Assembly (NCBI GenBank): GCA_035221665.1
Contig: CM069174.1
Span: 10,664,001 to 10,728,000, forward strand
DNA from: Okamejei kenojei
Taxonomy: Eukaryota
Direction: 5' to 3'
Length of the DNA stretch: 64,000 bases
Shown: in pieces, positions 6,725-64,000 of the stretch
Position numbering within the stretch: the first letter of the stretch is position 1
How the letters are laid out: the number at the start of each line of letters is the position of its first letter
Translations under genes and position numbers: made by a program
The notes under the pieces: model-generated
What the model was told of the DNA's origin: nothing
The model's input: only the letters and a program-made list of their open reading frames with translations
Database searches by the model: none

Positions 6725-6895
6725 TTTTCAAGAGAGAGGTACATTTAGCTCTTGGGGCTAAGGGAATCAAGGGATATGGGGAAAAAGCCGGAACGGGGCA
6801 CTGATTTTGAATGATCAGCCAAGATCACATTGCATGGTGGTGCTGGCTGGAAGGGCCGAATGGCCTACTCCTGCACCTATTTTCTATGTTTCTAT
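6725..6895 (+). mobile_element. HER1/CR1 LINE 3' end
   Basis: gggccgaatggcctactcctgcacctattttctatgtttctat tail typical of this family; recurs at 62035-62080. Confidence 0.7.
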
Positions 6896-8616: not shown

Positions 8617-8772
8617 GGTGATCTGCTGAGCCCCTGTCGCTGTGATGGCTCTGTGCGTTGCACCCACCAGCCGTGCCTAATCCGCTGGATCAGCGAGCGA
8701 GGCTCATGGAGCTGCGAGCTCTGCTACTTTAAGTACCAGGTCTTGGCCATCAGCACCAAGAACCCCCTGCAG
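8617..8772 (+). CDS. MARCHF9: E3 ubiquitin ligase MARCHF9, internal exon (RING-CH domain)
   Basis: ttgcag|[52 protein letters not shown]|gtcagt; 156 bp, phase 0/0; CYFKYQVLA is MARCHF9-type rather than MARCHF4-type. Confidence 0.95.
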
Positions 8773-34706: not shown

Positions 34707-34786
34707 ATGGCGGTGCCGGCTCCTCAGAAACGTTATTATCGACAGCGCGCTCACTCCAACCCGATGGCCGATCACTCCTTCGATTA
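34707..34786 (+). CDS. METTL1: tRNA (guanine-N7)-methyltransferase METTL1 exon 1
   Basis: MAVPAPQKRYYRQRAHSNPMADHSFD-ta|gtgagc; conserved Trm8/METTL1 RQRAHSNP motif. Confidence 0.95.
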
Positions 34787-34994
34787 GTGAGCAATAGTTG
34801 CTGAGGGGGAGGTGTAATTGGGGAATTATGGATGTGGGAAGGGAGGGGGTGTGCAAGAGGGCGAGGAAGGGTAGGGGGAAGAGGAATGTGTGAAAAGGAT
34901 GGGGGGAATAAAAGATTTGGTCCTTTATAGGATGGAGATGGTAATTCATTGAGGATGCGATTTGTTTTATTTTCTTGTGTGTGTGTGTCTCCAG

Positions 34995-35161
34995 CCCCGT
35001 TAAGCCTGAGGAAATGGATTGGTCTCAGTACTACCCTGAATACATCAAGCCACTTTCTGAGAAAGATCATCACGATGATGAGAAAGATATGACCGACAAA
35101 AATAATTTAAAGTTTCAGGTGGAATTTGCAGACATTGGATGTGGCTATGGAGGCCTACTGG
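34995..35161 (+). CDS. METTL1: METTL1 exon 2 (SAM-binding motif I)
   Basis: ctccag|(Y)PVKPEEMDWSQYYPEY..QVEFADIGCGYGGLL-g|gtgaga; 167 bp. Confidence 0.95.
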
Positions 35162-35536
35162 GTGAGAGTGTGTTACTGGAGCAATGTTCTTTGTCTTTGT
35201 CAGTCTGGATATATTTTATCGGGATTTCAATATGGCCTTTGATAATCGACTAACGAATAAGGTTCAAGAAGGTGGAGTCGGGACAAGTAGCAGAATGGAT
35301 TACTAGCTAACTTAAAGATAGAAAGCACAGAGTGGGAGTAAAGGGTAACTATTCAGTGAAAGTACTAGAATACAATTAACCATCAGAGATGAGTGCTGGG
35401 GATGACACCATTCAGTTTACATTATCAGGGCAAAGAAGGCAAGAACCGTGTATAGGAAAGTTGGGCGAGGGCCTGGGTGGACCATAAATAACAGCATGAA
35501 CTGCTTGGACTGACAAGCCTATTTTTGTGCTGAACA

Positions 35537-35833
35537 TTTAGTTTTAATTAATTTTTGGAGATACAGCGTGGAAACAGGCCCTTTGGCCCATTGAGTCTGT
35601 GCTGGCCAGTGATCACCCAACACTAGTTCTATCCTACACAGTAGGGACAATTTAAAGAAACCAATTAACTAACAAACCTGCATGTCTTTGGAATGTGGGA
35701 GGAAACCGGATCACCCGGAGAAAATCTACGCGGTCACAGGGAGAACATACAAATTCCGTACAGACAGCATCTGTAGTCGGAATCGAACCTGGGTCTCTGG
35801 CGCAATAAGGCAGCAATTCTACCGCTGCACCAC
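35537..35833 (-). mobile_element. HE1-type SINE
   Basis: Reverse complement of the 31382-31682 family. Confidence 0.8.
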
Positions 35834-36281
35834 ATTCGGCAGGGAATATCATGAACTAAAATAGTTACATTTGGGTTGAATCTGGAAGGGAGCATATAGT
35901 TTACAGTATGGAAACTGGCCTTTCAGCCCAACTCATCCACACCAGCCATGTTTTATAACTGGGTCAGTCACATTGGCCTAGTTTGGCCTGTGGTGTGGGC
36001 TGTGATCCCACACAGTTGTCACTCAGTTTTTTTTTAATGTCACTTGTTTTAGTCACCTGTGATACCCTCGAGATGCTCTTTTAGTGCTACATTAAGCCAA
36101 TTATCCTAGATCCTGCAGAGATCTTGTGTGCTTCATTTGTATCAGGTGGAGGGTGGGAAACACTGCGGGTAGTATTGTTTGGTGCTTGGCTTAAATTGGT
36201 GTCTTACAAAAGTTCTTAATTCCAGGAAATTAGGCACCAAAAACAGGCTCGACACTAATGAGACATCTTTTTTTTTTACAG

Positions 36282-36466
36282 TTGAGTTATCTCCTCTCTT
36301 CCCCAATTCCTTAATTCTGGGGTTAGAAATCAGAGTGAAGGTATCTGACTATGTCATAGATCGTATCAAATCCCTCAGAGCTTCAAACCCTGGAAAATAT
36401 CAGAACATCGCTTGCATCAGAAGCAACGCAATGAAGTATTTACCAAACTTCTTCAAGAAAGGACAG
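36282..36466 (+). CDS. METTL1: METTL1 exon 3
   Basis: tttacag|(V)[49 protein letters not shown]|gtacag; 185 bp. Confidence 0.95.
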
Positions 36467-36611
36467 GTACAGTGTTTGGCTCATTCCGTGACTGATTCTG
36501 GTTATGTAACTAGACTAGTCTACTTACATAAACTTAACTGGCACAGGTTTAAGGTGTGAGGGGAGAGGGTGGTGGGTATATGGAATAAGCTGCCGGAGGA
36601 GTAGTTGAGGT

Positions 36612-37255
36612 AGGTAGATACAAAATGCTGGAGTAACTCAGAGGGACATGCAACATCTCTGGAGAGAAGGAATGAGTGTCATTTCGGGTTGAGACCCTTC
36701 TTCAGACTGATGTCGGGAGTGAGCGGGACAGAGATAGAATGTACTCTGAGACAGTAAGACCGGTGGGAGAACTGGGAAGGGGAGGGGATGGAGAGAGAGG
36801 GAAAGCAAAGGCTATTTGAAGTTAGAGAAGTCGTAATGTTCATACTGCTGGGGTGTAAGCCACCCAAGCAAAATTTGAGATGCTGTTCCTCCAATTTGCG
36901 CTGGGCCTCACTCTGACAATGGAGGAGGCCCAGGACAGAAAGGTCAGATTGGGAATGGGAGGGAGAGTTAAAGTTCTGAGCAACCGGGAGATTAGGTTGG
37001 TCTCTGCGGAAAGCAGAAGGGGGGGAGATGGGAAAATGTGGCCAGCAGTGGGATCCCGTTGGAGGTGACGAAAATGTTCAAGGATTATATGCTGTATGCG
37101 ACGGCTGATAGGGTGGAAGGGGCGGACAAGGGGGACTCTGTCCTTGTTACGAATGGGAGGAGGGGGAGCAAGAACGGTGCTGCGGGATATCGAGGAGACC
37201 CTAGTGAGAGCCTCGTCTATAATGGAAGAGGGGACCCCCTGTTTCCTAAAGATTG
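36612..37255 (-). mobile_element. Penelope-like element fragment (internally deleted) in METTL1 intron 3
   Basis: Homologous to 947-3052 (EEQHLKFCLGGLHP; ggaggaggcccaggacaga); terminal repeat with hammerhead-like core at 36678-36705. Confidence 0.8.
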
Positions 37256-37940
37256 AGGACAGTTGAGGCAGGTTCTATAACAGCATTTAAAAGACATTTG
37301 GACAGGTAGGAAAGATTTAAAGGGAGATGGGCCAAACATGGTCAAATGGGGCGAGTGTAGATGGTGCAATGTGGTTTGCATGGAAGAGTTGGGCCAAAGT
37401 GCCAAATTTCTTGCTTTATGATTCTGGTCACCAAGAAAGCTCAACTATTGATCTAGGCGCAAGTTCAAATTATACCAGAGCAGCTGGGGATTTCTATTTT
37501 ATGAAATCTGCAATTAAAATGAGAGGTTGTGGGATATTTTGCATCAAGGTGGCAGAACAGGACTCAATTTAATGTTTAAGGGGGCACTCGCTGCACCCGC
37601 TCGTTGCTGTAGCTAGTTTTGATTGTCTATCCAGGCCCATGTGGCGGCAGTGGTGTGCTGTATTGTTATAAAAATTCATCTGGTTCAGCAATATCGTTTT
37701 GGAAGGGAAACAAGTGACCTTGCTTCTATGTGACTCAGCTACCTGCCAAAATGGCAAGTAAGTTGCTCAGGTCAGAGCCACTTAGGAACAGGCATTACAT
37801 GTTACCTTTGCTAGTGATGCTCTTGCCCCACAAAATTCTGGAGCTATTGTCCTAAACCATTATATTTTGAATTCCCACCCAAGTGAATGTTTAGCCACTG
37901 GATATATTTAAGGCTGAGAATAGATTTTGTTTGCGAGTAA

Positions 37941-38225
<285 letters not shown>

Positions 38226-38883
38226 TAATTGGAAGGTGTACACTACCAGGGTTTAATTGAGAGAAAGGTGCAAATGAAGTTCCCCATACATGGAATTTCT
38301 AAAAGAAAGAAGACTGCAAAAAAAAAAGACATTAGTGCAAAAACTTAATTAGAGAAAAAACAAGTCCAAGGAAGAGCAAGAGACTGTAACATTCTGTTGC
38401 TATTATTCCGTATGCCAGTATATTCTTTCTTAAATAAGGGGGCCAGATGTAGAATTTAGTCTTTTGAACGAATCAGGCATTTATTGAGTTCTATAGCAAG
38501 TCCAGATCCAGTTGCTGGGCCCTGTTTTGATGCTGTCCATTAATTCTCCATCCCCTGCTTTAAATGGCTCTGCCAGAGTGGGGGCATCTTCAGCTGTCTT
38601 CAGTGCTCTGGAATTAGCTTCCTTGAACCTTTCTCTTTTTTCTTTGATAATCCTGCTGTGCATCTTGGGATGATTTTATTTTGAGCTTTTAAGTTAATTG
38701 CAACTTATTGTAGCCCGATTGGGTTGTGGGGATAGTTATAACCCCTCAGTTAAGTTTTAAAATGAGTCAAAAGCTATTAAAATGGTGTAGTTTAATGAAA
38801 TAACAGTGCTGTTATGGTCATATTTAATATTGTTACCCTGTGATTTAAAAAAGAAAAATGTATCTGCACTTTCTCCGCTTTAG

Positions 38884-39051
<168 letters not shown>

Positions 39052-45399: not shown

Positions 45400-45650
45400 T
45401 CCGATGTCTGGAGTGTCCCATGAAATATCTGGCGCCGAACAACAGAAGCCGCGTGTCGTCTTGATTGGTTCGGCCGCTTATTAATATTTATAGTCGGAAA
45501 GATACATCCGCAGCTCAGCTCCTGATCGGTCAATTTACCGAGCCCCCTCCCCTCTCGCCGTCAACCTTGGTTGACAGCCACTGCTGCATCAATATAAACC
45601 CAGCAGAATGAAGGTGAGGATGATTGCACTGTTTTAACAGGGTACCTGCG
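45400..45650 (+). promoter_or_regulatory. Putative CYP27B1 proximal promoter
   Basis: CpG-enriched; inverted CCAAT (gattgg ~45463) and tataaa at 45593-45598 upstream of ATG 45651. Confidence 0.55.
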
Positions 45651-45836
45651 ATGTCTTTACTTCTAAAGCTAGCTAACCGCTTCCCTGTGTGCGGCAGGTA
45701 TGTTGCAGGGATGCTGGCGAAGCCAGTTCTGGCCAAGAGTCCGACAACTCTCGCTGACATGCCGGGTCCTAGCGCTGTCCGCTTTGCCTACGATCTCTTC
45801 TTCAATAAAGGGATTTCCAGGTTACACGAGCTGCAG
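45651..45836 (+). CDS. CYP27B1: 25-hydroxyvitamin D 1-alpha-hydroxylase CYP27B1 exon 1 (mitochondrial targeting peptide)
   Basis: MSLLLKLANRFPVCGRY..TLADMPGPS..DLFFNKGISRLHELQ|gtaaga; basic presequence and PGP motif. Confidence 0.9.
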
Positions 45837-46488
45837 GTAAGAACAACTTGTTCTAACATCATTAAAAACACACCCAGACTGATGTTTGAGTGTTGCCTGA
45901 CTTGTTGGGTATTTCCAGCACATTTTACGTTTATTTCGAAATTCCAGTATTTTGCTTCTAATATTTTGCTGTCCCTGTTTAATTAGAGGTTCCTCTCAGG
46001 ATATCAGAGTCTTGACTGAATTATCGGTTCATAGTGCTACTTGCTAACTGTACTCAGAATCACACAGCACAACAAAGGAGAAGGCTATTTGTCCCATTAA
46101 GCCTGAGCCAGCTCTGCGAAAGCTTTCCATTGGCTCACTCACTCCACAGCCTGGCACATTGCCCCCTCTAGTGTTTCCGTGATTTCCCCCTTCCTATTGT
46201 AAGCATCTCTAAATTATCTCTCCTATAATCTGATTAAAATAAAAATATTCACAAGTATTAACTATTTTTTATGAATTTGGGTAATAGCCCTGCCCATCCC
46301 CAACAGAAGCGCGTGTTAAGCTGCCTACTTGACCCGCTGAAAATGATCCCAAGGTGTTGTTGGCTCAGAAATCCCAAGGACTAGAAACATAGAAAACGTC
46401 GGAAAATAGGTGCAGGAGTAAAGCCACCTGTCCCTTCGGACCAGCACCGCCATTCAATATGATCATGGCTCATCATCTAAAGTCAGTA

Positions 46489-46653
46489 GGTACACAAAAA
46501 GCTGGAGAAACTCAGCGGGTGCAGCAGCATCTAAGGAGCGAAGGAGATAGGCGACGTTTCGGGTCGAGACCCTTCTTCAGACTGCACCCGCTGAGTTTCT
46601 CCAGCTTTTTGTGTACCCTCGATTCTCCAGCATCTGCAGTTCCTTCTTTAAAA
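46489..46653 (-). mobile_element. Fold-back Penelope-terminal-derived element with intact minimal hammerhead core
   Basis: 14-bp TSD atctaaagtcagta at 46475-46488 and 46654-46667; inverted arms gtacacaaaaagctggagaaactcagcgggtgcag / ctgcacccgctgagtttctccagctttttgtgtac. Confidence 0.85.
46553..46580 (-). ncRNA. Minimal type I hammerhead ribozyme motif (PLE-associated)
   Basis: Minus strand CUGAAGA-A-GGGUCUCGACCC-GAAA-CG-UC: CUGANGA box, helix II, GAAA box, palindromic ACGU helix III, GUC site; helix I is weak. Confidence 0.65.
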
Positions 46654-47424
46654 ATCTAAAGTCAGTACCCTGTTTCTGCTTTTTCCTCATATCCCTCAAT
46701 TCCTTTTGCCCGAAGAGCTAAATCTAACTCTAACTCTATTTTGAACTGTCTCTCTAGACTACAGTCTAGAGTTGTGGTGTCACTGGACGTAGGAGGGTTG
46801 GGCCTGTGTAACTGCCTCTCTATGCTTCACTAGTGCAATGTCTTAAGGAGGAAACATGGGTGGCATTAACTAGAGTCATACAGCACGGAAACATGCGTTT
46901 GGCCCATATCCCTCTAAAACGTTCCTATCGTGCACCTGTCGAAATGTCTTTAAAATGTTGTTATAGTGCCTGCTTCAACGACCTCCTCTGGCAAGCTCGT
47001 TCCATGTACTCACCACCCTCTGTGTGAAAAAGTTACCCCTATTCTTGTTGTAAGAGATTTGATTGAATTGCTGGTACAATTGACATAAATATAATTATGA
47101 ATAAAGACCCTTCTGCAAACAAAAGTCTCAAAAGGCCAGCAACCTCTCACCTCAACGAATGTCAATCTGTTTTCTTTTTTAAATAAGTCAATTCATGCCC
47201 AGTCGGCTGCAAACTCTGGGACACATGGACCTGCAGGTTGGGGGATGATTTTAAGGAAATAAACCCTGTTGTGCTGTTGGTTGGTTGGCTTTGGACCCTC
47301 TTTTGAAATGGCCTTCTTCAAGCTCCTCTGACTCAGGCAGAACTGGGGAACTGAAGGGTTAAACGGTCACCATATTAACATCCTCGGCCACATTCCCATC
47401 TGAAGAAGCGTCCTAACCCAAAAC

Positions 47425-47912
47425 CTCTGAGGAAGGAGGTGCTGGCATTGGGAGGGTCCAGAGGAGGTTTAGAGAATGATCCCAGGGATGATTGAATTAA
47501 CATATCAGAAGCATTTGATGGCACTGGGCATGTACTCACAGGCATTTAGAAGGTTGAGGGGGATCTCATTGAAATCTAGTAATAATGAAAGGCCTGGAAA
47601 GAGTGGATGTTTCCAGTGATGGGAGAGTCTAGGACAAGAGGGCACGGCCTCAGAATAAAAGGACGTACCTTTAGAATGGAGATGAGGAATTTATTTAGCC
47701 AGAGGGTGAAACTGTGAAATTTATTGCACAGACAGCTGTGGAATCCGAGACATTGGGTATTTTTAAAGTGGAGATTGATAGGTTATTGATCAATAAAGGT
47801 GTCAAAGGTTACGGGAGAATGGGTTTGAGAGGGGAAAAATAGATCAGCCATGATCAAATGGTGGAGCAGATACGATGGGGCAGAATCGCTTAATTCTGCA
47901 TCTGTGTTATGG
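47425..47912 (+). mobile_element. HER1/CR1 LINE 3' fragment in CYP27B1 intron 1
   Basis: agggtccagaggaggtt..agaaggttgagggggatctcattgaaa..agatcagccatgatc..tail; same family as 54400-54660. Confidence 0.7.
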
Positions 47913-48044
47913 TCACCTAACCACGTTCTCCAGAGATGCTGCCTGACCCACTGAGTTACTCCAGCACTTTGTGTGTCTTATTTTGTAAACCAGCATCTGC
48001 AGTGCCTTGTTTCTCTCTTCTTCATCCTCCCTCTTGTTTAACAG

Positions 48045-48235
48045 CTTGAGGGCAAGGCGAAGTACGGGCCAGTGTGGAAGGCCCGTTTTGGCCCCATCCT
48101 CACCGTACACATTGCAGATGCAGCGTTAATCGAACAAGTCTTGCGGCAGGAGGGCCAGCACCCAATCCGATCAGATTTGTCGTCTTGGAAAGATTACAGG
48201 CAGCACCGAGGACACGCATACGGGCTCCTCACTGC
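48045..48235 (+). CDS. CYP27B1: CYP27B1 exon 2
   Basis: ttaacag|LEGKAKYGPVWKARFGPILTVHIADAALIEQVLRQEGQHPIRSDLSSWKDYRQHRGHAYGLLT-gc|gtgagt; 191 bp. Confidence 0.95.
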
Positions 48236-48829
48236 GTGAGTAGATCGCCGTGGCTGGGTGTCTCTACACTGCTCAGGGAAGGGGTTAGACCACAGGCCTG
48301 CCCCCGTGCCTCAGACCCCTCAGCACAAATGGAAGCGTGGGTGGTGGAGTGCTCCTGATACCCCGGCAAACAATCTGCAGCAAAAAACGAAAATGCCATA
48401 AACACTCAGCAGGTCAGGCAGCATCCTTGGAGAAAGAAACAAGAGTTAATGTCGTCGATTGATAATGTTAACTCTTCCTCCATGGATGTTGCCGGGCTGC
48501 CCAGTAATTCCAGCTTTTTTGGCTTTGTTTCAGATTTCCAACATCCGCTAGGTTTTTTTATTTTTGGGGTCGTGTACAGATAGACAATGTGTTTTATTTT
48601 TTCCTTTAGGGGAGTTAGTCAGACGTTTCTGAAGGGAGAATATTAAAGCGAGAGACTGGGGCAGATCAGAGAGGATCATATTGAAAGGTGGGGCAGGCAT
48701 GAGGGGCCGAGTGGCCTAGTCCAGTCACTGCACAATGCAGTCGATTGGTACCCAGATCTGCGGATGGCAGTGCCGGTGAGTGTACATGACGGTTCTCCCA
48801 CCTGAACTCAGAGTCTTTCTTTCTTGCAG

Positions 48830-49026
48830 CGAGGGCGAGGAGTGGCAGGAACTCCGCAGCACGCTCAGCAAGCACATGCTGAAGCCCAAGCAAGTGGCGG
48901 CGTACGACGGTGTTCTTAACGATGTCATCACTGACCTGGTCCTTCGCCTGCGTCAGCAGAGGGCAACCAGCAGCCGCCTCCTGGTCAGGGACTTGGCTGG
49001 CGAGTTCTACAAGTTTGGATTGGAAG
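48830..49026 (+). CDS. CYP27B1: CYP27B1 exon 3
   Basis: ttgcag|(A)[32 protein letters not shown]-g|gtgagg; WxxxR motif; 197 bp. Confidence 0.95.
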
Positions 49027-49592
49027 GTGAGGGATAAAGAATCAGCAGCTTCTTCCCACTCCACCTTCAGACCCTGCTCCAGCCCAGATGAATGGTCTTG
49101 GAGCTCAAGCGTTCACTCTGTTTCCCTCTCTGTGGGTGCAGTCCGACCTGCTGTGTATTTCCAGCACTCTGATTTTATTTCAGATTTCCAGCATCTGCAG
49201 CAATTTTCTTCATCAATTCACTCCAACCTTTCTTGCCCTGGGGGAGATGGTATCTTAATCCAAGTGGGAATCTCAGAGGATGGGCCAGTTTTGTTTTTGC
49301 ATGCTCTCCCTTCAACTACTGCAGAGTGTTCAAATTCCCTGCTTTGACAGTAGAATTGGTAGGGGCAGCCGATAATGCCCTTGTCCCGGGCTCCCGTGGT
49401 GTATCCCGACCACCCCTCCCAGTGCCCGGCATCCCAAGCTTGTGAGAGATGCAGAAGAAGTTGGGGTGAGGGCAGCTTACCTAGACCACACTCCTGAAAC
49501 TGGAGTAGGATGAAAGGACCTTCTGGCGCTCCAGGCTAAATTCAGAAAAAACCACATGACTTGTATGTTAATTCACTGCCCACTCTTCCTAG

Positions 49593-49793
49593 GTATCTCC
49601 GCGGTGCTCTTTGAGACCCGGATTGGCTGCCTCAAGACGGACGTTCCCAAAGAAACAGAAGACTTTATCCAGTCAATTAACACCATGTTCCAAATGACGC
49701 TCCTCACCATGGCCATGCCCAAGTTCCTGCACAAAATCTACCCGGGACCCTGGCAGAGATTTGTCGCCTGCTGGGATTACATGTTCGCCTTTG
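49593..49793 (+). CDS. CYP27B1: CYP27B1 exon 4
   Basis: tcctag|(G)ISAVLFETRIGCL..TLLTMAMP..PGPWQRFVACWDYMFAF-g|gtgagg; 201 bp. Confidence 0.95.
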
Positions 49794-49971
49794 GTGAGGA
49801 GTTTGTGTTGTCGATATGTTGAGGCTGAGGGATTGAAGCAGGAATGTTGTCTGAGTGAGGTTCTCTTTGTGGGTGGTAGAGACCGATGAGAGCGAAGAGA
49901 GAGAGACATAAAGATACAGGGAACTGCAGATGCTGGAATCTTAAACAAACCATTAAATATTGGATGAGCTC

Positions 49972-50243
49972 TTTAGACTTTAGAGATTCAGCGCGGAAAC
50001 AGGCCCTTTGGCCGACTGAGTCCGCACCGACCAGCAATCCCTGTACACTAATACTATCCTACACACGCTACGGACAATTTACAATTTTACGAAAGCCAAT
50101 TAACCTACAAACCTGTACGTCTTTGGAGTGTGGGGGGAAACCAGATCACCCTACTCCATACAGACAGCACCCATAGTCAGGATCGAACCCGGGCCTCTGG
50201 CGTTCTAAGGCAGCAACTCCACAGCTACGCCACCGTGCCGCTC
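49972..50243 (-). mobile_element. HE1-type SINE
   Basis: Reverse complement of the HE1 family, including the B box (caggatcgaacccggg). Confidence 0.8.
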
Positions 50244-50520
50244 ACAGTAATCCTAGTGTGAAACATTTGCTGCATCTCTGGAGAACATGCTTAAGTGACG
50301 TTTCGGGTCGAGATCCTTCTTCCTGGGATTGACTCTGCGATGTTAGGGTTGAGCAATAAATGTTGGTGTTACCAGTGATGCCCACATCCTGAAAAATATG
50401 AAAAAATGAATACATTTATAAACTGCAGAGACTCCCCCAGCTTGTTGTGTGAAGTGGCGATTGGGGAGGCGATGCAGTTGGATGTTTCTCCACAAAACTT
50501 ACAATGCCTTCACTGTGCAG

Positions 50521-50684
50521 CTAAAGGACACATCGATAGAAGGATGGTTGAAGTTCAACACAAGTTAGCAAGAAGCCAACCAGTCGAGGGAACGTACCTG
50601 ACCTACTTCCTTTCCACCCAGAGGCTCCCGATGAGAGCCATTTATGGAAATGTGACCGAGTTGCTGCTGGCTGGTGTGGACACT
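50521..50684 (+). CDS. CYP27B1: CYP27B1 exon 5 (I helix)
   Basis: gtgcag|(A)KGHIDRR..YLTYFL..IYGNVTELLLAGVDT|gtaagt; 164 bp. Confidence 0.95.
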
Positions 50685-51512
50685 GTAAGTGCATGTGACT
50701 AGTTGCTTACATGAGCTTCAGGTTCTATCATCGGTAGCGAGGTGGGGGTGCAAAGTTCAGATTGGGCAGGACGTGTGGGTCACACCCACACACCTACCCA
50801 GGGTTTCAAAGACGTGTATTTCCACTGCAACTTTCTTGTCCCTTTCAGAACGTCTCAAAGTGCTTCACTGCCAGTGACGTACTTCCAAAGTGTTGTCACT
50901 GTTGTGATTTAAGAACCAAAGAAAGCCAATGTATTCACAGCAGGCTTCCACAAACCCACAAAGTGATAACGATCATGTTTGAAGAGATGTCATTTGAGGG
51001 ATAAATACTGACCACAATTACCCTTCTTTTCAAAATATTAGGATTTTTAACATTCATGTGTAAGTGCAGACAGGGCCTTAGTTTAAGATTAGGTACAGGC
51101 ACTGAACTTCTGACCATGTAGCACTCCTTCGACACCACGCCCCTCTAATAGTGTGGCACTCCCTTGACATTGTCCCCCTCTGACAGTGCAGCACATCACC
51201 CCTTCCTCCTCCCAGAATGTGGCACTCCCCGAAAGTGCAACGTACCTCTCTTGGACGGCACACTACTCATTTCCCCTTTGACAATGCAGGGGGAATGTGC
51301 AAACTCCTCGCAGAGAGCAGTGGCTGGAATTGAACCGGGATTGCTGGAACTGGGAGGCAGCAGCGGTATCAGCTGCACCACTGTGCCCCCCCCCCCCCCC
51401 CCCAGTTGAAATACTGACAGCTAACCTGGGATCTCAGTGTTATACCAGCTGGCCGACCTTATCTTCCATGCTAGCCCTGATTTGATCTGTGTTTCCTCTC
51501 CCATTTGGATAG

Positions 51513-51679
51513 ATTTCCAGCACAATGTCATGGTGCCTTTACGAGTTGGCCCGGCACCCAGATATTCAAGCAGCCCTGCACCGGGAAATAAGAGAGACAG
51601 TTGGAGACAAACCCATCCCTTCAGCTGCTGACGTGGCAAAGATTCCGCTTCTGAAAGCTGTTGTGAAGGAAATACTGAG
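51513..51679 (+). CDS. CYP27B1: CYP27B1 exon 6 (K helix)
   Basis: ggatag|ISSTMSWCLYELARHPDIQAALHREI..PLLKAVVKEIL-ag|gtgagg; ExxR motif; 167 bp; not in the ORF track in this frame. Confidence 0.93.
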
Positions 51680-51974
51680 GTGAGGGGGTGAGAGTGGGTG
51701 TTGCTACCTGGCAGCTGTGGGTGCCTTCACAAGGCAGTTGATTTCCTTGCCTGTCACCTCCCGGTCCGTCACCTCTGTCCCCACTATCTCCTTGTCAGTC
51801 ACCTATTTGGCATTTCCTCCTCTGATCTCCCCATGTTCTGAGATTGGAGGAGAGGTGAGCTGGTGGCACAGTGTTGCGGGATGTGTTGCACCTCTCCTTT
51901 CCTTTCCCCCCCAACCTTTGGTGCCATGACTGAAAACTGAAATATGTGTAATGTACCATTTCTGCACTTTCTAG

Positions 51975-52056
51975 GCTTTACCCTGTAATACCAGGTAATG
52001 CCCGTGTGATTCCAGATAAGGATATCCAAATTGGAGAATACATCATTCCACAAAAT
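51975..52056 (+). CDS. CYP27B1: CYP27B1 exon 7
   Basis: ttctag|(R)LYPVIPGNARVIPDKDIQIGEYIIPQN|gtaagt; 82 bp. Confidence 0.95.
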
Positions 52057-52815
52057 GTAAGTGCAGAGATTCTTAAGATTTTTTTCATTAAACCCCCCCC
52101 CTTGCAGTGGCTTTGGAGTGTTTTATTATATTTACTTCTAACTAGTTGATTCAAATAGTATGTTTTAAGAAAACACCAAATTGTCAGAAGCAGAAAATGT
52201 GCAGGTAATCTCAACAGTAAACTAGAACAACGCCTTGTATTCTGTGTGGGGAACATCCCTCCAGCGTTCACTCACTGCCTGCTTCCAAGGTACACCCTTG
52301 CATTCTGTGACAAGCCCCAGCCCTTAGATTTGTGTCAGTGACAGTCAGATTGGAGTTCTTCTGAAGGCCTGGCTTTGGAAGCCACTTATAGGAGAGTGGC
52401 AGCAGTGACCCATGAGTATTTCTCTTCCCTCAGTTGGGTAATTAAGGCCCGAGTCTGGAAGGGTGACACTCTGGAGTTGAAGAGCTGTCAGTTGCTACTC
52501 AAAAATGCGCAGTCAGATGGCCCAATCTCATTCTACAAGAGCTCTTCATATACCTAAATGCAGCTTTTACCATTTCAAATCCCTTTAAGCGTTCTATTAT
52601 GCATGGAGAAGACTATGTAATATAGTTGATGAGAAAAGTGATTGTGACATTGAGCAGCAACTTGTCACTCAGACACTCAAAGTTTTCTCCGAGCACCCTG
52701 GTTTGGTTGGTTAACCTTGAAGTTAAGTCCACTATGAGCGAGGTAGGATTTTCCGACTCGGGTCTGGTTCTGATGAAGTCCTGCTGGTTCTGACACTCTC
52801 TGTCCTTCTGCCCAG

Positions 52816-53013
52816 ACTCTGATCACTCTGTGTCACTACGCAACCTCACGAGACAAAGAGGTCTTCCCCAACCCTGACTCATTCCAGCCGATGCGATGGC
52901 TTCACAAGGACGACAATTTCCATCCTTACGCCTCCATCCCCTTTGGCTTCGGGAAGCGAAGCTGTATCGGAAGAAGAATCGCAGAGTTGGAGGTCTACCT
53001 GGCTCTGGCAAGA
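52816..53013 (+). CDS. CYP27B1: CYP27B1 exon 8 (heme-binding cysteine)
   Basis: cccag|[51 protein letters not shown]|gtaagt; FxxGxRxCxG motif; 198 bp. Confidence 0.96.
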
Positions 53014-53900
53014 GTAAGTTGGATTTGAACTCTGTGGTGAATGTAGGCTCTGCTCGGCATGAGGGAGGGTAGCGTGATGGTCGAGAAGCAGAAAATGTGA
53101 ATTTAAATCCCATTTGAAAACTGGGAATTTAAATTCAGTTCATGAAATAAAAAGTCAGTATCAGTGCCAGTGACCATGAGTCTACCAGCCTTATTTTGAA
53201 ACGTAAAAGCAATCACGAGACAGATTTGCTGTACTTGGCTTGTCTGGCTTTTATGTGACTCCAGACCCATAGTCTGTTACATGGGGATAGGAGGAGGCTA
53301 ATCAACCCCTCCGTCTGGCCTGTCACACCACTCGGTCAGACTGCAGCTGATCTCTTCCTCTAAGCCCATTTTCCCTCGGTAATTATACAAAGAAAACCCA
53401 TCCATCTCAGTCATGAGGAGGGAGAATTCCAGATTGTCCCAAATCTTTGTGTGAGGAAAAAGCTCTGGCTCCAATTTTAAGTTTGTGGCCCTTGTTCTGG
53501 ACTCTTTCTCCAACCAGAGGAATAGTCATTGTAAATGTTTGATAGTGTCTTCATGATTCAATAACACTTTATTGTCATATGTACCTGGGTTCAGTGAAAT
53601 GCTCGGTTTTGCATACAACCCGGTAAAATCTTACAGCAGGCCTCACCTAGGCAGTACACAGGAGTAGCCACATTTCTGGCGTCGACAAAGTTACAAAAGT
53701 TCACCAAACAGTTCTATCTTCTGCTTGCCGCCGCACGTGGCAATGGGCGGCTCCCCGCCAGGTCCCCTCCGAAACAGCTGGTACTTGCGGACTAACCCTT
53801 GAAATGCCGGTACGGCTATGACAAATGCAAGGTCCTGACAGCTGTGCAGAATCCCCCCTGGATGAACAACACCGATCCTGACATGCCATTTCCTTTTCAG

Positions 53901-54014
53901 ATCATGACCCACTTTGAGGTGAGACAGGAGATCAAAGGCAGCGTCGTAAAACCCATGACCAGAACTGTGCTGGTGCCAGAGCAGCAGATCAATCTTCAGT
54001 TTATTGACAGATGA
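53901..54014 (+). CDS. CYP27B1: CYP27B1 exon 9 (last coding exon)
   Basis: tttcag|[37 protein letters not shown]; total CDS 1500 nt = 499 aa. Confidence 0.95.
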
Positions 54015-55434: not shown

Positions 55435-57195
55435 GATCTAGGGACTTCTGCTCTAAGCTGGAGGATGAGACGGATGTTCGGCAACTATGGCAGGGCTTGA
55501 ATGCCATCGCCTCCTAAAAGGCGAAATCAGGAGGCAGCTCAATTGTCAGCGAAGCATCCCTCCCTGACGAGCTCAATACGTTTTACGCACGCTTTGATAG
55601 GGAGAACACTGATGTGCCTTCCTGAGCCCCCATTCGCCGTGATGGTATTTCGGTCACAGTCACAGAGGCCGACGTCAGAAGATCCTTCATGGGGGTGAAC
55701 CCTCGGAAAGCGCCTGGACCTGATGGTATACCCGGCTGTGTTCTAAAAACCTGTGCGGACCAACTGGCTGGAGTTTTTAACGGATATTTTCAACCTCTCA
55801 CTTCTGAGGTTCCCACCTGCTTTAAAAGGGCATCAATAGTACTGGTGCCCAAGAAGAGCAAGGTGACGTGCCTCAATGACTTTCGACCAGTGGCACTAAC
55901 GTCTGTGGTGATGAAGTGCTTTGAGAGGTTGATTATGGCGCATATCAACTCCTACCTCGACAAGATCCTCTACCCTCTGCAGTTCGCTTACCGCCACAAC
56001 AGATCAACGGTGGATGCGATCTCACTGGCCCTCCACTCCGCTCTGTACCACTTGGACAACAGAAACTCATATGTCAGGCTGTTATTCATTGACTACAGCT
56101 CGGCATTTAACACCATCATTCCCCCTCCAAGCTGGTTACCAAGCTCTCAGATCTGGGTCTTTGTGCATCCCTCTGCAATTGGATCCTCGACTTCCTCATC
56201 CACAGACTACAGTCTGTCCGTATTGGTGGAAATGTGCCATCCTTGATAACAATCAGCACGGGAGCGCCTCAAGACAGCGTGCTCAGCCCCCTGCTGTACT
56301 CACTCTATACTCATGACTGCGTAGGCGGTCATAGTGCGAACTCCATCATCAAGTTCGCCGACGACACCACTGTTGTGGGACGAATCACTGATTCTTAGAA
56401 GTGAGATTGACCGATTGACCAGCACAATAACCTGGCTCTCAACACCAGCAAAACCAAGGAACTGATTGTGGACTTTGGAAGGGGTAGGATAGGGACCCAC
56501 AATCCCGTTTATATCAACAGGACGATGGTGGAAAGGGTCAAGAACTTCAAATTCCTGGGCGTGCATATTTCCGAAGATCTGTCCTGGTCCCAGCACAATG
56601 ATGCAATTATAAAGAAAGCACATCAGCACCTCTACTTCCTGAGAAGATTACGGAGAGTCGGTATGTCAAAGAGGACTCTCTCGAACTTCTACAGGTGCAC
56701 AGTAGAGAGCATGCTGACCAGTTGCATTGTGACTTGGTTCAGCAACTTGAGCGTCCAGGAGCGGAAAAGAATGCAGAAAGTTATGACCACTGCCCAGTCC
56801 ATCATCGGCTCTGATCTCCCTACCAACGAAGGGATCTATCGCAGTTGCTGCCTCAAAAAGGCTGCCAACATCATCAAGGAGCCACACCATCCTGGCCACA
56901 CACTCAAATCTCTGCTGCCATCAGGTAGAAGATACAGGAGCCTGAAAACTGGAACATCCAGGTTCAGGAACCGCTTCTTCCCCACAGCCAACAGGCTATT
57001 AAACTCGCCATCAAACAAACTCTGAACTATAACAGCCTATTGCACTTTATCTGTATATTTATGTGTGTATATATATGGTCTATGCTATATAGACGCACTG
57101 AACTGTTCTGTATTTATGCTTACAATATTCTGTTGTGCTGCAAGCAAGAATTTCATTGTCCTATCTGGGACACATGACAATAGACTCTCTTGACT
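55435..57195 (+). mobile_element. Rex1/Babar-like LINE, 5'-truncated, frameshifted RT
   Basis: [71 protein letters not shown] split across frames; tail tagactctcttgact. Confidence 0.9.
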
Positions 57196-58300: not shown

Positions 58301-58361
58301 CCTTAGTGGGGATCTCTTTTGATCCTGTGCTAACAGTATTGGCCATGTTTCTTCATCCAGA

Positions 58362-58577
58362 AGGTAGATAAAAATGCTGGAGAAACTCAGCGGGTGAGGC
58401 AGCATCTATGGAGCGAAGGAAATAGGCAACGTTTCAGTCGAAACCCTTCTTCAGACTGGTTTCGACCCGAAACTTTGCCTATTTCTTTTGCTCTATAGAT
58501 GCTGCCTCACCCGCTGAGTTTCTCCAGCATTTTTGTCTACCTTCGATTTTCCAGCATCTGAAGTTCCTTCTTCAACA
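58362..58577. mobile_element. Long fold-back Penelope-terminal-derived element
   Basis: ~85-bp inverted arms; 14-bp TSD tttcttcatccaga at 58348-58361 and 58578-58591; degenerate hammerhead cores near the apex. Confidence 0.85.
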
Positions 58578-59431
58578 TTTCTTCATCCAGATATGTTTTA
58601 TTGCTCACTGAACTTTTATGGTTCTACTGACTCAGAATATTGTGTCATCAGCACATGCTGCGTGGACAAAGGGCAGGTGGGTTAGAGTATCTGGACACCT
58701 CATGTTCACATGCTGATCTAACGGAGAGCAATGTCCTGCTGTGACCTGCTATTGGTCAGAGGTGTCCAGTTATTGCTGTTTGTTTTCCAGCTGCCACGTG
58801 GACACTTTTTTTCATGTTGTGTTTTTTTCCTGTTTTCTCTGGTGGTGAGCAGAACTAACTCTGGGGCCAAGGTGTGGAGTCAGCCAATTGGGCTGAAGTC
58901 AAAGGTCTCCTTCCAACTGAACAAACAAACACCTCTTCAACTGCAGCGTACCTGCCAGACCAGCCACACAGGGAATGCTGATGGTGGCACCAAACCATCG
59001 GTATGTTTGTTCTGAGGCGGTCCCGGCTAGTTTTCCTAATCCCTCCCATCTCCTGCTGTACCGTGGTTACCTATTCCCTTCCTGAATCTCTATCCATCTG
59101 TTAGGAGCCTTTGTGCCTGGATTGAATGCACTATTTTAACAGAGATGCACCCACACACACCTGCATATACGCACTGCAGTACAAAGTGTACACAGTGTTA
59201 GTCAGGGGTGCAGGGTGTAGGGTGTATCAGAGTTTATACACATGAAGGATGTGGGATCATCAGGTTATACAGCACAGATACAAGCCCTTCATCCCAACTC
59301 ATTGCTGTTGACCTAAGTGCCTTCCTGTGCATTTATTTGCTCCATATTCCTCTAAATCTTTCCTATCCATTTACCTGTCCAAATGTTGTTTAAATGCTAT
59401 ATTTTTACCAGCCTCAACTACCTCCTCTGGT

Positions 59432-59630
59432 GTTTAAGAAGGAACTGCAGATGCTGGAAAATCGAAGGTAGACAAAAATGCTGGAGAAACTCAGCGGGTG
59501 AGGCAGCATCTATGGAGCGAAGGAAATAGGCAACATTTCGGTCTGAAGAAGGGTTTCGGCCCAAAACGGTGCCTATTTCCTTCGCTCCATAGATGCTGCC
59601 TCACCCGCTGAGTTTCTCCAGCATTTTTGT
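59432..59630. mobile_element. Long fold-back Penelope-terminal-derived element (opposite orientation to 58362)
   Basis: 14-bp TSD ctacctcctctggt at 59418-59431 and 59631-59644; ctgaagaagggtttcggcccaaaac at 59543. Confidence 0.85.
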
Positions 59631-59894
59631 CTACCTCCTCTGGTAGCTTGTTTCACATACATCACCTCTATGTTAGGGTGTCCCTCTTTCCCCTCTCACC
59701 AAAGGAGGCCAATATCATCAGAGACCCACACTACCCTGGACATGCTCTCATTTCACTCCTACCATCAGGAAGAAGGTGCAGGAGCCCCTGGAACTGTGAC
59801 CACCAGATTCAACCACCAGATTCAGAGCACATGAACATTACACACCATTAACCTCAACTGTGAACAATGGTCTTTGGGAGCACTCTGGTTATTA

Positions 59895-60213
59895 GCATGG
59901 AAACAGGTTGTTTTTTTTTGACGTACCGAGTCTATCATCCCACATTCTCATCCATTTCCCATGCACTTGGAGGAATTTTACAGAGCAATTTACACATGTC
60001 TTTGGAGTGTGGGAGGCAACCAGAGCAACCGGATTAAACCCAGGGGGTTTAACTGTTCATTTACAGAACCAGTCACTCTTCCGTCAATTCTCGCTCCTGA
60101 CAGACAAGAGCTTTGAACGTTGTCTCTCACGGGGAGAACGTGCAAACTCCGTACAGACAGCACCCGTGGTCGGGATCGAACCCGGGTCTCCGCCGCTGCG
60201 CTACCGTGACGCA
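59895..60213 (-). mobile_element. HE1-type SINE interrupted by an ~80-bp non-SINE insert
   Basis: tctttggagtgtgggagg..[insert]..tcacggggagaacgtgcaaactccgtacagacagcacccgt..gatcgaacccggg. Confidence 0.7.
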
Positions 60214-60214
60214 C

Positions 60215-60660
60215 CGAAGTTGGGTTGTGCTCCAAGCCTTGCCTGTGGCGCTGCGTTTTGCGACGGCTGAAGTAACTTCACGGCGAAAACATTTATGTGC
60301 AAGTGAAAAAGAAAAGTTGAACAGCCCCACCCTGAGGGGAAAAACAGAAAAGCTGGAGCTTGGCGCCTCTCCCTTCACATCTGAAGTGGGCGGGACAATG
60401 TGAGGAGCACGTGGTCTGGCGATGCGTCAGTCAAACCTGACAGCAGGCGGATGAGTGACAGTGGCGCTGGCCAATCGCGAGAGGGGTTTTGTGTCCTGGG
60501 AGCGGCAAGTTAGGTTGCGCCCCGAGTCCCGCCCCCTGGCGCCGAGTCAGCGGCAGCGGGACGACGTTAAAGCTCTTGTCTGTCAGGAGCGAGAGCAGTA
60601 TTGACGGAAGAGTGACTGGTTCTGTAAATGTAAAGCTAATGAAAGAAACAAAAAGTTTCC
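60215..60660 (+). promoter_or_regulatory. CpG-rich promoter / probable non-coding first exon, most likely of the EEF1AKMT3-like gene
   Basis: GC boxes (gggcggga ~60388, cccgcccc ~60528), E-box cacgtg 60408-60413, CCAAT 60471-60475, cgtca half-CRE. Confidence 0.55.
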
Positions 60661-61581
60661 CCGAGTGTTTCCGCGCTGCAAACATTGAGCAGGTCGGGCA
60701 GCATCGGCGAAGAAAGGATCGGCGGAGACAGTCTGAAGGGTCTTGACCTGAAACATCACCCATCACTTCTCTCCACAGATGCTGGCTGACCCGCTGAGTT
60801 ACTCCAGCTTTTTGTGCAAAGTACATCTTCGTTGTAAACCAATATCTGCAGTTCTTTCCCACACAAAAGAACTGAGTTCACGGTTCAAATCGGATACAAA
60901 CTTTACAAGTTATAAAGACTGGGGTGTAGTGGAGGAAAATAAGGAAGTGCTTCTGACTGTTATCCTGGTGACCAACTAACCTAATCTTCAGGTGTTCAGG
61001 AATTGTTCTGGGTGCCTTCGAAGAGAGGCGGATGAATGCTTTTTAACTGCAAAACGACACAAAATGCTTGAGTAGCTCAGCACAATTCTCCAGAGATGCT
61101 GCCTGCCTGACCCGCTGAGTTACTCAACCACTTTGTGTCCTTCAGTGTATTAATCAGTATCTGCAGTTCTTTATTTGTGTTTTTAATTACAGTCTGGATG
61201 AGAATTAAAAAATCATGCTGGAATTGTGAGATTCAGGCCACAGGTGGGACTGCAGGAAATACCCAGCAGGTCGGGCAGTAACTGCAGCGAGAGAAAGAAA
61301 CTAAATCATGTTAAAAGTAAATGACATAACCCTCGTTGGCCAGTTCTGATACAAACAGAAAGGATGGTTATCTAACATTGTTGAATTCACCTAGTTAAGT
61401 TCAGAGGGCTGCTATGTTCTTCAATGGAAAATGAGACGCTGTTTCTCAGTTTAGGTTGGGCTTTGTTGGAATAATGGAGGAGGCCAAATATCAGGATGGG
61501 AATCAAATGGAGAATTAAAATGTTTTCTGATATCATTTTGGGTCGGCTGGCATTTTTGAAAATGTCTTTCTCCCCTTCAAA

Positions 61582-61697
61582 GATAGACACAAACAGCTGG
61601 AGTAACTCAGCGGGACAGGCAGCATCTCTGGAGAGAAGGAATGGGTGATGTTTTGGGTCTTCAGTTTAAACCAGCATCTGCAGTTCCTTCTTACACA
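61582..61697. mobile_element. Penelope-terminal-derived short element
   Basis: 15-bp TSD tttctccccttcaaa at 61567-61581 and 61698-61712. Confidence 0.75.
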
Positions 61698-61819
61698 TTT
61701 CTCCCCTTCAAATTGGTTTATCTTTTCACCCCAGGGGAAAATGTGTCCAACGTTGGGAACAAGTTAATTTGGCAGAGCCGGTGGAGATTGGAAATCCAGA
61801 TGTCAAGGGATGACGTAAA

Positions 61820-62219
61820 ATGATGGAACAACATCTATGCATGGTGGTGAGTCTCTGGAAACTCTCTGCCACAGAGGGTAGTTGAGGCCAGTTCATTGGC
61901 TATATTTAAGAGTGAGTTGGATGTGGCCCTTGTGGCTAAGGGGATCAGAGGGTATGGAGAGAAGGCAGGTACGGGATACTGAGTTGGATGATGGATACTG
62001 AGCCATGATCATATTGAATGGCAGTGCAGGCTCGAAGGGCTGAATGGCCTACTCCTGCACCTAATTTCTATGTTTCTATGGAGTGCCTTTCCCAAGGACG
62101 ATGATCTGTTTGCAGACTATTACATGGAGGAGAGCACATACGAGTTTTGTGGACATGTTGTAAAGATCACCGAGAAGTTCAGCGCTGACCTGGGAATTGC
62201 TGGTTCAGTCTGGGAATCT
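61820..62219 (+). pseudogene. EEF1AKMT3: EEF1A lysine methyltransferase 3 (METTL21B)-like first coding exon, interrupted by a LINE insertion (functional status uncertain)
   Basis: 62082-62219 reads SAFPKDDDLFADYYMEESTYEFCGHVVKITEKFSADLGIAGSVWES|gtaagt, resembling the human N-terminus [45 protein letters not shown]; synteny agrees; downstream exons not seen in the window. Confidence 0.8.
61840..62080 (+). mobile_element. HER1/CR1 LINE 3' end inserted into the EEF1AKMT3-like exon
   Basis: gtggtgagtctctggaaactctctgccacagagg..gaatggcctactcctgcacctaatttctatgtttctatg; tctatg repeated at 61834-61839 and 62075-62080. Confidence 0.85.
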
Positions 62220-63304
62220 GTAAGTGTAGTGGCCTGAAAGTTGATGAAGCTGAGAGAAAGAACTCCTTTTGCAACTGCTCTATCCACCCCACTGAGCTGC
62301 TGTATTGGCTCATTTTTTCTCGCTGAGCAAGAAGGCTCCGTGTATAACCCCCAGCTCTGTGCCTCGAGCAAAGAAATACAGGCAGGCAGTACCATGAGAG
62401 TGCAGATGTTGGAATCTGGAGCAACAAACAATCTAATGTTAGACACACATTCCTCCTACTGGGCTATCTGACCAGCTGAGTTCCTCCAGCAGATTTATTA
62501 TACAAAGAGCCTGCCGCACTGGTCTCTCAGATGTGGGATGTCCTCTCTGTTTGCCTATGCATGTGCATCCCACATGACTATTTGAATGAAAGGGGCCACA
62601 ATTCCTCCTTTTTCTCCTAACCAACCCACTCCAATATTTTGTTTGTGGCTTCCTGTGACAGGCAAATGTTGCCACAGCATTTGCCTATGTAACAGGAGGA
62701 GCTGCACTCGAGGGTACGTCGTTGTGAAGCTTTATGGGCAAATTAAGAACATGAGCAGATGGTATGCAAATGTAATAACTAGGAACTGCTGGTTTATACC
62801 AAATATGGACACAAAATGCTGGAGTGACTCAGCAGGTCAGGCAGCATCTCAGGAGAACATGAATGGCTGATGTTTACCAACCATGCTCAATCTGCCCCTC
62901 CTCTCTCCCAGCTTTCTTCCCCCCACCCTACAATCAGTCTGAAGAAGTGTTCCAACCCAAAACATTACCTGTCCATGTTCCCCAGAGATGCTGCCAGACC
63001 CACTGAGTTACTCCAGCACTTTGTGTCTGTCTTTGATTTGCAAATGTACTTTCTTTTTGCAACACACCTGCTGTAACATCAGTTAATTCCAAACTGAATT
63101 GACTGATGGAAGGTCAGTCTGGCAATAGCTGCTCCCATTAATCATCCCTTCTCCTCTCATGGAGGTGTTTAAACATACGTGGTGACTAGAGGTAGCACAC
63201 TCGCCTTTAACTCCTTGGGTTGTGAGTTCAACCACTCCAGATCTTCAATCACTTTCAAAGCTGCCGTCATTCAAATGGTGCATTAAATTGAGGACCACCC
63301 TCAA

Positions 63305-63933
63305 TTTAAGTCAGACTCATCATGCAACAGCGAAAGCAACAGGTGTCCTAAACTTCCTGAGGTGCAACTTCCATCATTGTTCAGCTTCTGTCAAGGAGAA
63401 GCTGTATTTCACCCTCGTTAGACCTCATCTGGACTATGCATCTTGGGACCCATACACAGATAAAAACATTTCATCCATCGAGCGTGTCCAAAGACAGGCC
63501 GCTCGATTTGTTACTAACACCTATGATAAAGAAGCGAGTGTCACCAAACTTCTGAATTCTCTGGGGTGGAACCCTCTCCAAGACAGACGTGAAGCTCACC
63601 GTTTGACCTGTTTTTACAAAATGTTAAATGGTCAGCTAGACATAGATCACAAGACCTACACCAACCCCAAACCAATTAGGAGCAGACGAGGGCATTCGAT
63701 CCAATTTGTGGTCACAGCCACAAAGACAGATGTGTACAGCAATTCATTCTTCCCACACACTATTAAAGCATGGAATAATCTCCACCAAACCACGGTTGCC
63801 CAGCCAGATGCAACTAAATTTAAAGTGGCACTTTCATCCCAATAACCCTCTCTGGCTTAACCCCTCCCTTCACCGCCTCCAGTTTAAATTCCAGTTGGAA
63901 TATTTTGGAGGACCAAGTAACCAGGAACCAAGA
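63305..63933 (+). mobile_element. CR1-group LINE 3' portion, distinct from HER1 (invertebrate-like), with (accaaga)-like tail
   Basis: Open frame KATGVLNFLRCNF..KEKLYFTLVRPHLDYASWDPY..IERVQRQAARFV..LGWNPLQDRR..NSFFPHTIKAWNNL; tail accaagtaaccaggaaccaagaacc. Confidence 0.75.
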
Positions 63934-64000
63934 ACCCTCCTACTCTCTCCAGTAGAACTAAAAAGATCCACACTATGGATGCTGAAATGCTCATGTAGAG

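Follow-up and report, generated by a model that had tools for sequence, protein, structure and literature searches.

The first coding exon of EEF1AKMT3 (METTL21B) in this skate is interrupted by a 241-nt, 5'-truncated CR1-type repeat (61840–62080), which lies in the orientation of the gene, has TCTATG on either side and splits codon 7. (Positions refer to the window, i.e., the whole 64,000-nt stretch of DNA that was analysed; features are on the plus strand unless noted otherwise.) With the insert kept, the frame that opens at ATG61820 reaches a TGA at 61883–61885 after 21 codons, the stop being codon 22. Because of this premature stop, a working methyltransferase is unlikely to be produced from the allele, which is likely a pseudogene. 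We consider it probable that the gene is disabled, possibly having been lost across skates, with the loss likely buffered by paralogues. A preliminary description of this stretch had left open whether the LINE tail disrupted the exon or rescued it by supplying a start codon or a new intron. The split codon, the early stop and the position of the insertion, 3' of the ancestral start, bear out disruption.

In seven of 20 registers (deletion starts 61834–61840), deletion of 241 nt left a single frame that is open between ATG61820 and the GT at 62220. The slide between registers is the 6-nt TCTATG, present at 61834 and 62075. All coordinates previously given for this joined frame, which ends at the native donor and is broken by the insert, were confirmed. 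The hexamer precedes 16 of the 63,980 window positions, and the insertion together with its 6-nt junction match exceeds chance. Since the tail of the element itself ends in TCTATG, a target-site duplication is indistinguishable from priming on the element's own tail. By the established mechanism, target-primed reverse transcription would have placed the element at this site, where TCTATG of the host matched the octamer tail, and left it truncated at its 5' end.

The ancestral start and first 20 coding bases (61820–61839; codons 1–6 and two bases of codon 7), ending in the left TCTATG (61834–61839), align residue for residue with the starts of all four ray orthologues. The remainder, codons 7–53 (62081–62219), has no stop or indel and runs into the native donor GTAAGT (62220–62225, phase 0); both native splice sites are intact. 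The upstream acceptor that had been proposed as a candidate proved strong (61715–61734, the AG ending at 61734): it scored 6.8 in our own rough matrix, from which all splice scores given here derive, placing it in the top 0.6% of AGs in the window, and it is the candidate opening of the exon. The putative 5' untranslated part (61735–61819) holds upstream ATGs at 61741, 61800 and 61810 and an in-frame stop at 61811, which rules out an in-frame extension upstream of ATG61820. Further upstream lies a CpG-rich, promoter-like region (60001–61000; CpG observed/expected 0.80–0.84), which may have a promoter role and hold the first exon and transcript start of EEF1AKMT3, and possibly also the transcript start of TSFM. 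No later EEF1AKMT3 exon was found in 62226–64000. At codon 22 of the uninterrupted frame (62124–62126), a skate-specific Thr-to-Met change creates a further in-frame ATG with G at +4; translation from it would omit the conserved F-P and L-F segment.

The insert consists of a peptide-coding remnant (to ≈61982), which we take to be the C terminus of ORF2 (reverse transcriptase), followed by a 3' untranslated region that ends in the terminal octamer TTTCTATG, present twice at 62065–62080. It is an interspersed repeat: nhmmer found seven other matches in the window, the best 77–80% identical, and the short peptide remnant is shared with eight other places in the window. The ESM Atlas returned only unnamed clusters for this peptide, and neither it nor the exon had a Pfam match. 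The interspersed, 5'-truncated copies, which share a 3' end, and the terminal octamer of the insert substantiate the earlier assignment to a CR1-type LINE tail. As described in the accessible part of one study, the hallmarks of CR1 are 5' truncation and a 3' hairpin with an octamer microsatellite (PMC4316615), and CR1-group elements are reported to make up 22–34% of shark and ray genomes in the accessible part of another (PMC13343379). The name HER1, used in the preliminary description, appears in the available portion of its source in a list, paired with the HE1 SINE (PMC3747384). A 3' hairpin stem is predicted in the insert but is not significant, with a z of −1.18 and 23 of 200 shuffles folding as well. 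The insert also shows wear: the 10-mer GGATACTGAG occurs twice (61974 and 61993), where the insert has 6 nt more than the aligned copy at 6727, and inspection by eye suggests a one-base shift in its ORF remnant.

Other repeats were observed in the window. Further LINE remnants with long open frames lie at 1166–1849, 55626–57022 (with a reverse-transcriptase Pfam match) and 63186–63845, the last falling in the intron after the broken exon. An abundant family of short palindromic repeats (58358–58588, 59431–59640, 61577–61698 and others) gives ≈15–18 overlapping matches per copy, and one copy splits a CR1 fragment at 46400–46735. The CpG-rich region is flanked by an 81-nt inverted duplicate (60049–60124, minus strand, and 60560–60639, plus strand; 87.7% identical, with no other copy in the window), whose left copy lies inside a SINE-like repeat with its head at 60127–60198. 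This arrangement suggests a local template-switch insertion.

The identity of the gene is supported by similarity, phylogeny and gene order. The exon matched human METTL21B (PDB 4QPN) with an E of 1.1e-10, the only match at E ≤ 1 among 177,635 sequences, and with the insert skipped 42 of its 53 residues agreed with the sawfish orthologue. Of 43 representative matches, the best was a red stingray protein, the others being set aside as potentially mammalian or human; a search with the stingray protein returned 63 proteins (230 candidates), and cluster look-ups brought in orthologues from 17 species of sharks and rays. In a 54-row tree, in which the exon row fills only 48 columns, the exon was sister to the sawfish, Mobula and stingray orthologues (98/92), within the orthologue clade (100/98) and apart from 34 paralogues. 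The earlier designation "EEF1AKMT3-like" is upheld by the METTL21B match, the orthologue clade and the synteny and, as judged from tree and synteny (MARCHF9–METTL1–CYP27B1–EEF1AKMT3), the locus is the true EEF1AKMT3 orthologue. The intact donor, together with tree and synteny, led us to reject a dispersed paralogue or retrocopy. We likewise rejected a second copy in the window: the sole other tblastn signal (45650–45961, minus strand, E 0.009) is antisense to CYP27B1 exon 1 and contains a stop. Searching the exon peptide against longer proteins gave four candidates and no match; that search also missed ray orthologues that were found later, and is no evidence of absence.

The ancestral start codon, which had been considered uncertain, is now settled at ATG61820. 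All four ray orthologues open with two methionines exactly at this position, which places the insertion inside the coding sequence, and all 13 shark orthologues begin 3–4 residues or more upstream of it. The main isoforms of all 17 species thus start at or upstream of ATG61820; this excludes an ancestral start 3' of the insertion and refutes the suggestion that orthologues might begin downstream of the insertion point, as would speak against disruption. One sawfish isoform (X2) was found without the sequence of the first coding exon. According to the accessible part of one study, METTL21B methylates eEF1A Lys-165, and its orthologues are scattered among vertebrates and stated to be absent in birds (PMC5416902). 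Our search matches, however, include a low-quality cormorant protein.

The neighbouring genes are those expected around EEF1AKMT3. CYP27B1 (45651–54014) has nine exons and an intact 499-aa frame, identical to that of Leucoraja erinacea at 487 of 499 residues and to that of Amblyraja radiata at 418 of 432; these two are identical to each other at 427 of 432, and identity is 88% for the sawfish CYP27B1. By this marker the window comes from a skate that is probably neither L. erinacea nor A. radiata. METTL1 exons (34707–38985) were recognized by Pfam PF02390 on three exons and a PDB match, the first exon being read by eye, and a RING-variant exon (8617–8772; Pfam PF12906, E 9e-10) was named MARCHF9-like from its position. 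In Pristis, Mobula birostris, Chiloscyllium plagiosum, Mustelus and Rhincodon, the EEF1AKMT3 orthologue and CYP27B1 are on contigs of equal size. The four genes in the window (8617–62219) are all on the plus strand. In human, CYP27B1 and METTL1 are on the opposite strand, with METTL1 head-to-head with EEF1AKMT3, and the difference would imply an inversion in one lineage. In two Mobula species and Pristiophorus, the annotation gives the orthologue as a TSFM isoform, a hint of shared exons or read-through between both genes in cartilaginous fish. The window contains no tRNA or Rfam match.

We looked for signs of loss in other skates and in the exon itself. None of the 63 matches (230 candidates) was a skate orthologue protein. 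The protein collection does contain skates (a paralogue cluster with Rhinoraja and Amblyraja, and CYP27B1 from Leucoraja and Amblyraja), and for Mobula and Pristiophorus the search recovered even orthologues that carry a TSFM isoform name. However, the Narcine and Callorhinchus orthologues were also not retrieved, so that absence from the search is imperfect evidence. In the little skate, the gene numbers are 17501 for cdk4, 17503 for mettl1 (G0017503), 17505 for tsfm (G0017505) and 17507 for pan2 (PMC9605692, supplement 2), which agrees with the gene order in the window. A single number thus lies between mettl1 and tsfm, compared to two genes in the window, and CYP27B1 would presumably fill that slot. 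G0017502, G0017504 and G0017506 are absent from the eight supplementary files, and the annotation itself was projected from the thorny skate, according to the accessible part of that paper (PMC9605692).

Seven residues of the exon were seen in none of the 17 orthologues, and five of these lie at columns invariant in all 17. L34, Q38 and V46, invariant in 27 of 27 orthologues, are changed in this exon. Skate-only changes affect six of 40 shark-invariant columns, compared to 10 of 228 in CYP27B1 (Fisher p = 0.019, for two different genes and three sharks). Relative-rate tests were not significant (p = 0.22–0.45), the exon branch is not long (0.12, compared to 0.15–0.16 to sawfish or Mobula), and the exon contains no second lesion. 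This pattern fits, but does not prove, inactivation on the skate branch and slow drift thereafter.

A transcript that enters the exon via the acceptor at 61734 and is translated from ATG61820 would stop 334 nt 5' of the next exon junction and would be a substrate for nonsense-mediated decay. The element also carries a donor-like GTGAGT (61847–61852; score 4.9, top 0.6% of GTs, against 1.4 for the native donor). This site shares phase 0 with the native donor and could therefore be joined directly to the following exon, with the loss of residues 7–53. This third outcome was overlooked in the preliminary description. Where the donor at 61847 is used, the next native acceptor would be its likeliest partner, giving an in-frame protein that lacks two beta strands (21–29 and 32–40 of the model) and W51, a tryptophan invariant in 58 of 58 family members, and that is predicted to be inactive.

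That the CR1 tail rescued the gene, either by becoming a spliceosomal intron with a newly gained branch point and a borrowed host AG or by donating a start codon, is in our view unlikely. To gauge how often such signals arise, the same element was placed at 1374 random positions of the CYP27B1 coding frame. Two tail ATGs cover two of the three frames, so that an in-frame tail ATG was present at 60% of positions. An in-frame GT-AG intron was available at 46%, both signals at 33% and either at 74%. The rescue signals in the exon are therefore not above chance, and both routes have probably arisen by chance from the sequence of the element itself.

Rescue by the tail ATG (62070–62072) would give a protein in which the first five residues are replaced by two new ones, conserved positions are kept and the enzyme is active. 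The ATG is in frame with the exon, as previously described, and the downstream part of the exon and its donor are intact. In the predicted product the invariant F-P and L-F positions are retained, and all residues missing from it lie outside the predicted core. Residues 1–17 are of low confidence in the model of the sawfish orthologue, so that the product of either rescue route would be expected to keep the folded core. However, an in-frame tail ATG is expected at 60% of random sites; this one belongs to the terminal octamer repeat and is also present in the copy at 6881. Its context is poor, with no purine at −3 and no G at +4, and an out-of-frame upstream ORF (62018–62104) overlaps it. In the predicted mRNA entering at 61734 (the exon being assumed open at 61735), it is the fifteenth ATG, preceded by 14 others including the original start. 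Use of this codon would require a transcript that starts or is spliced within ≈50 nt upstream of 62070, and no AG between 61900 and 62070 scores above −2.6, leaving no good acceptor just upstream. None of the 63 retrieved proteins was a skate protein with this start, and three exact look-ups in the protein collection, among them one with the ORF from ATG62070, were negative, which is weak evidence. The in-frame ATG thus stands, and its role as a working start appears distinctly improbable.

Alternatively, the species may keep an intact copy, the insertion being polymorphic, confined to one haplotype or an error of assembly. In favour of this, a single sequence was available, in which the exon shows no stop, indel or overall increase in rate. 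On the other hand, the duplicated GGATACTGAG and the shifted ORF remnant argue for some age of the element, the clean 6-nt junction match fits real retrotransposition, and no orthologue protein was seen for three annotated skate genera. We therefore regard an intact copy in the species as quite unlikely, and a disabling insertion as the better reading.

Less probable still is a new 250-nt intron (donor 61847, branch 62061, acceptor 62096), which would leave the gene functional, with six host residues exchanged for three. All three signals noted in the preliminary description are present and the junction 61846^62097 is in frame, but a working intron does not follow from them. The donor is strong. 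The branch-point-like CTAAT (62061–62065), ≈32 nt before the AG, reads CTATT in both of the other in-window copies that reach this site, and could be a gained signal. The residues that would be lost lie in the low-confidence N terminus of the model, and non-LTR elements are reported as 5% of classified introners in the accessible part of one study (PMC12130899). The acceptor, however, is an AAG inside host coding sequence (62094–62096) with a score of −1.5; 20% of AGs in the window score higher. It also scores below all 13 acceptors used for comparison (eight CYP27B1 sites fixed by alignment and five taken from METTL1 and the RING exon, of which one is unverified), which all end in YAG. A GAG ending at 62083 (score −3.5) is the first AG after the branch-like site, precedes the candidate acceptor and would shift the frame. 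In-frame introns are in any case permitted at 46% of random sites, and 12 of 40 GT-AG pairs here are in frame. The intron would also remove P11, invariant in 27 of 27 orthologues, and F10, where each of the 27 has F or L. A second in-frame acceptor, at 62024 and likewise overlooked in the preliminary description, would spare the F-P residues; it scores −2.7 and lacks a pyrimidine tract. Intron gain at this site is accordingly very unlikely.

Equally remote is the idea that the donor at 61847 truncates the exon to give a short in-frame isoform, or an exon in a TSFM read-through, with a separate function: the score of this donor is above that of the native donor, with which it shares phase 0, an annotated sawfish isoform lacks the sequence of this exon, the orthologues of two Mobula species and Pristiophorus carry TSFM annotations, and METTL21B–TSFM read-through is reported in human tumours in the accessible part of one paper (PMC12564374), but truncation deletes two beta strands and the invariant W51, and no truncated skate protein was retrieved among the 63, though the sawfish isoform lacking the exon was.

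Disablement of the gene thus remains the probable reading. With several related genes present in sharks and rays, which may buffer it, its loss is likely tolerated. Sharks, rays and the chimaera have an expanded EEF1AKMT3-like family with several well-supported subclades that are separate from the orthologue; Heterodontus has six paralogues. An expression table for the little skate lists Eef1akmt3-4 and -6 among the entries listed (PMC10115646, supplement, accessible part), and human METTL21B knock-out cells have been obtained (PMC5416902). The insertion may have caused the loss or may have come later than relaxed selection.

If the gene is indeed disabled, one or more skates have undergone a lineage-specific loss of the orthologue of the eEF1A Lys-165 methyltransferase, and the retroelement insertion can date the loss and serve as a phylogenetic marker. 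The loss would also raise the useful, if modest, question of whether eEF1A Lys-165 is still methylated in skates via a shark/ray paralogue. If instead one of the rescue routes did operate, the locus would be among the rare cases in vertebrates in which a LINE has made an intron or a start codon, caught in the act. Rescue of this kind could be general for the element family in skates, given the in-frame ATG that the tail supplies at ≈60% of coding positions. One study describes vertebrates as apparently without recent intron gain (PMC12130899), although 342 human intron gains are reported in another (PMC12124190). We found no report of this instance, or of EEF1AKMT3/METTL21B in connection with sharks or skates, in the open-licence literature.

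Gene disruption by a LINE is a known and ordinary kind of event, and the loss of a gene by retroelement insertion into a coding exon is an instance of the general concept of the unitary pseudogene. The skate locus likewise has a disabling insertion at the orthologous locus, a premature stop and conserved synteny; it differs in that paralogues exist in the skate lineage. Like the CR1-group 3' fragments described in the accessible parts of PMC4316615 and PMC13343379, the insert is heavily 5'-truncated and ends in an octamer repeat, before which a hairpin, not significant here, is predicted; it differs from them in sitting in a coding exon. As in the introners and other TE-derived introns covered by the accessible part of PMC12130899, the element carries a donor-like site close to its 5' end and could make use of an AG of the host, but its removal would be imprecise (affecting six host residues), the acceptor is non-canonical, and it represents one site rather than an intron family. 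Finally, the exon sequence, tree position and gene neighbourhood are those of EEF1AKMT3/METTL21B (PDB 4QPN; PMC5416902, accessible part), and the model of the sawfish orthologue matches 4QPN at 1.3 Å over 201 columns. The skate gene departs from this enzyme in that its frame is interrupted at codon 7, while the catalytic motifs (Motif 1, Post 1, Motif 2 and DXXY) are located on exons beyond the window.
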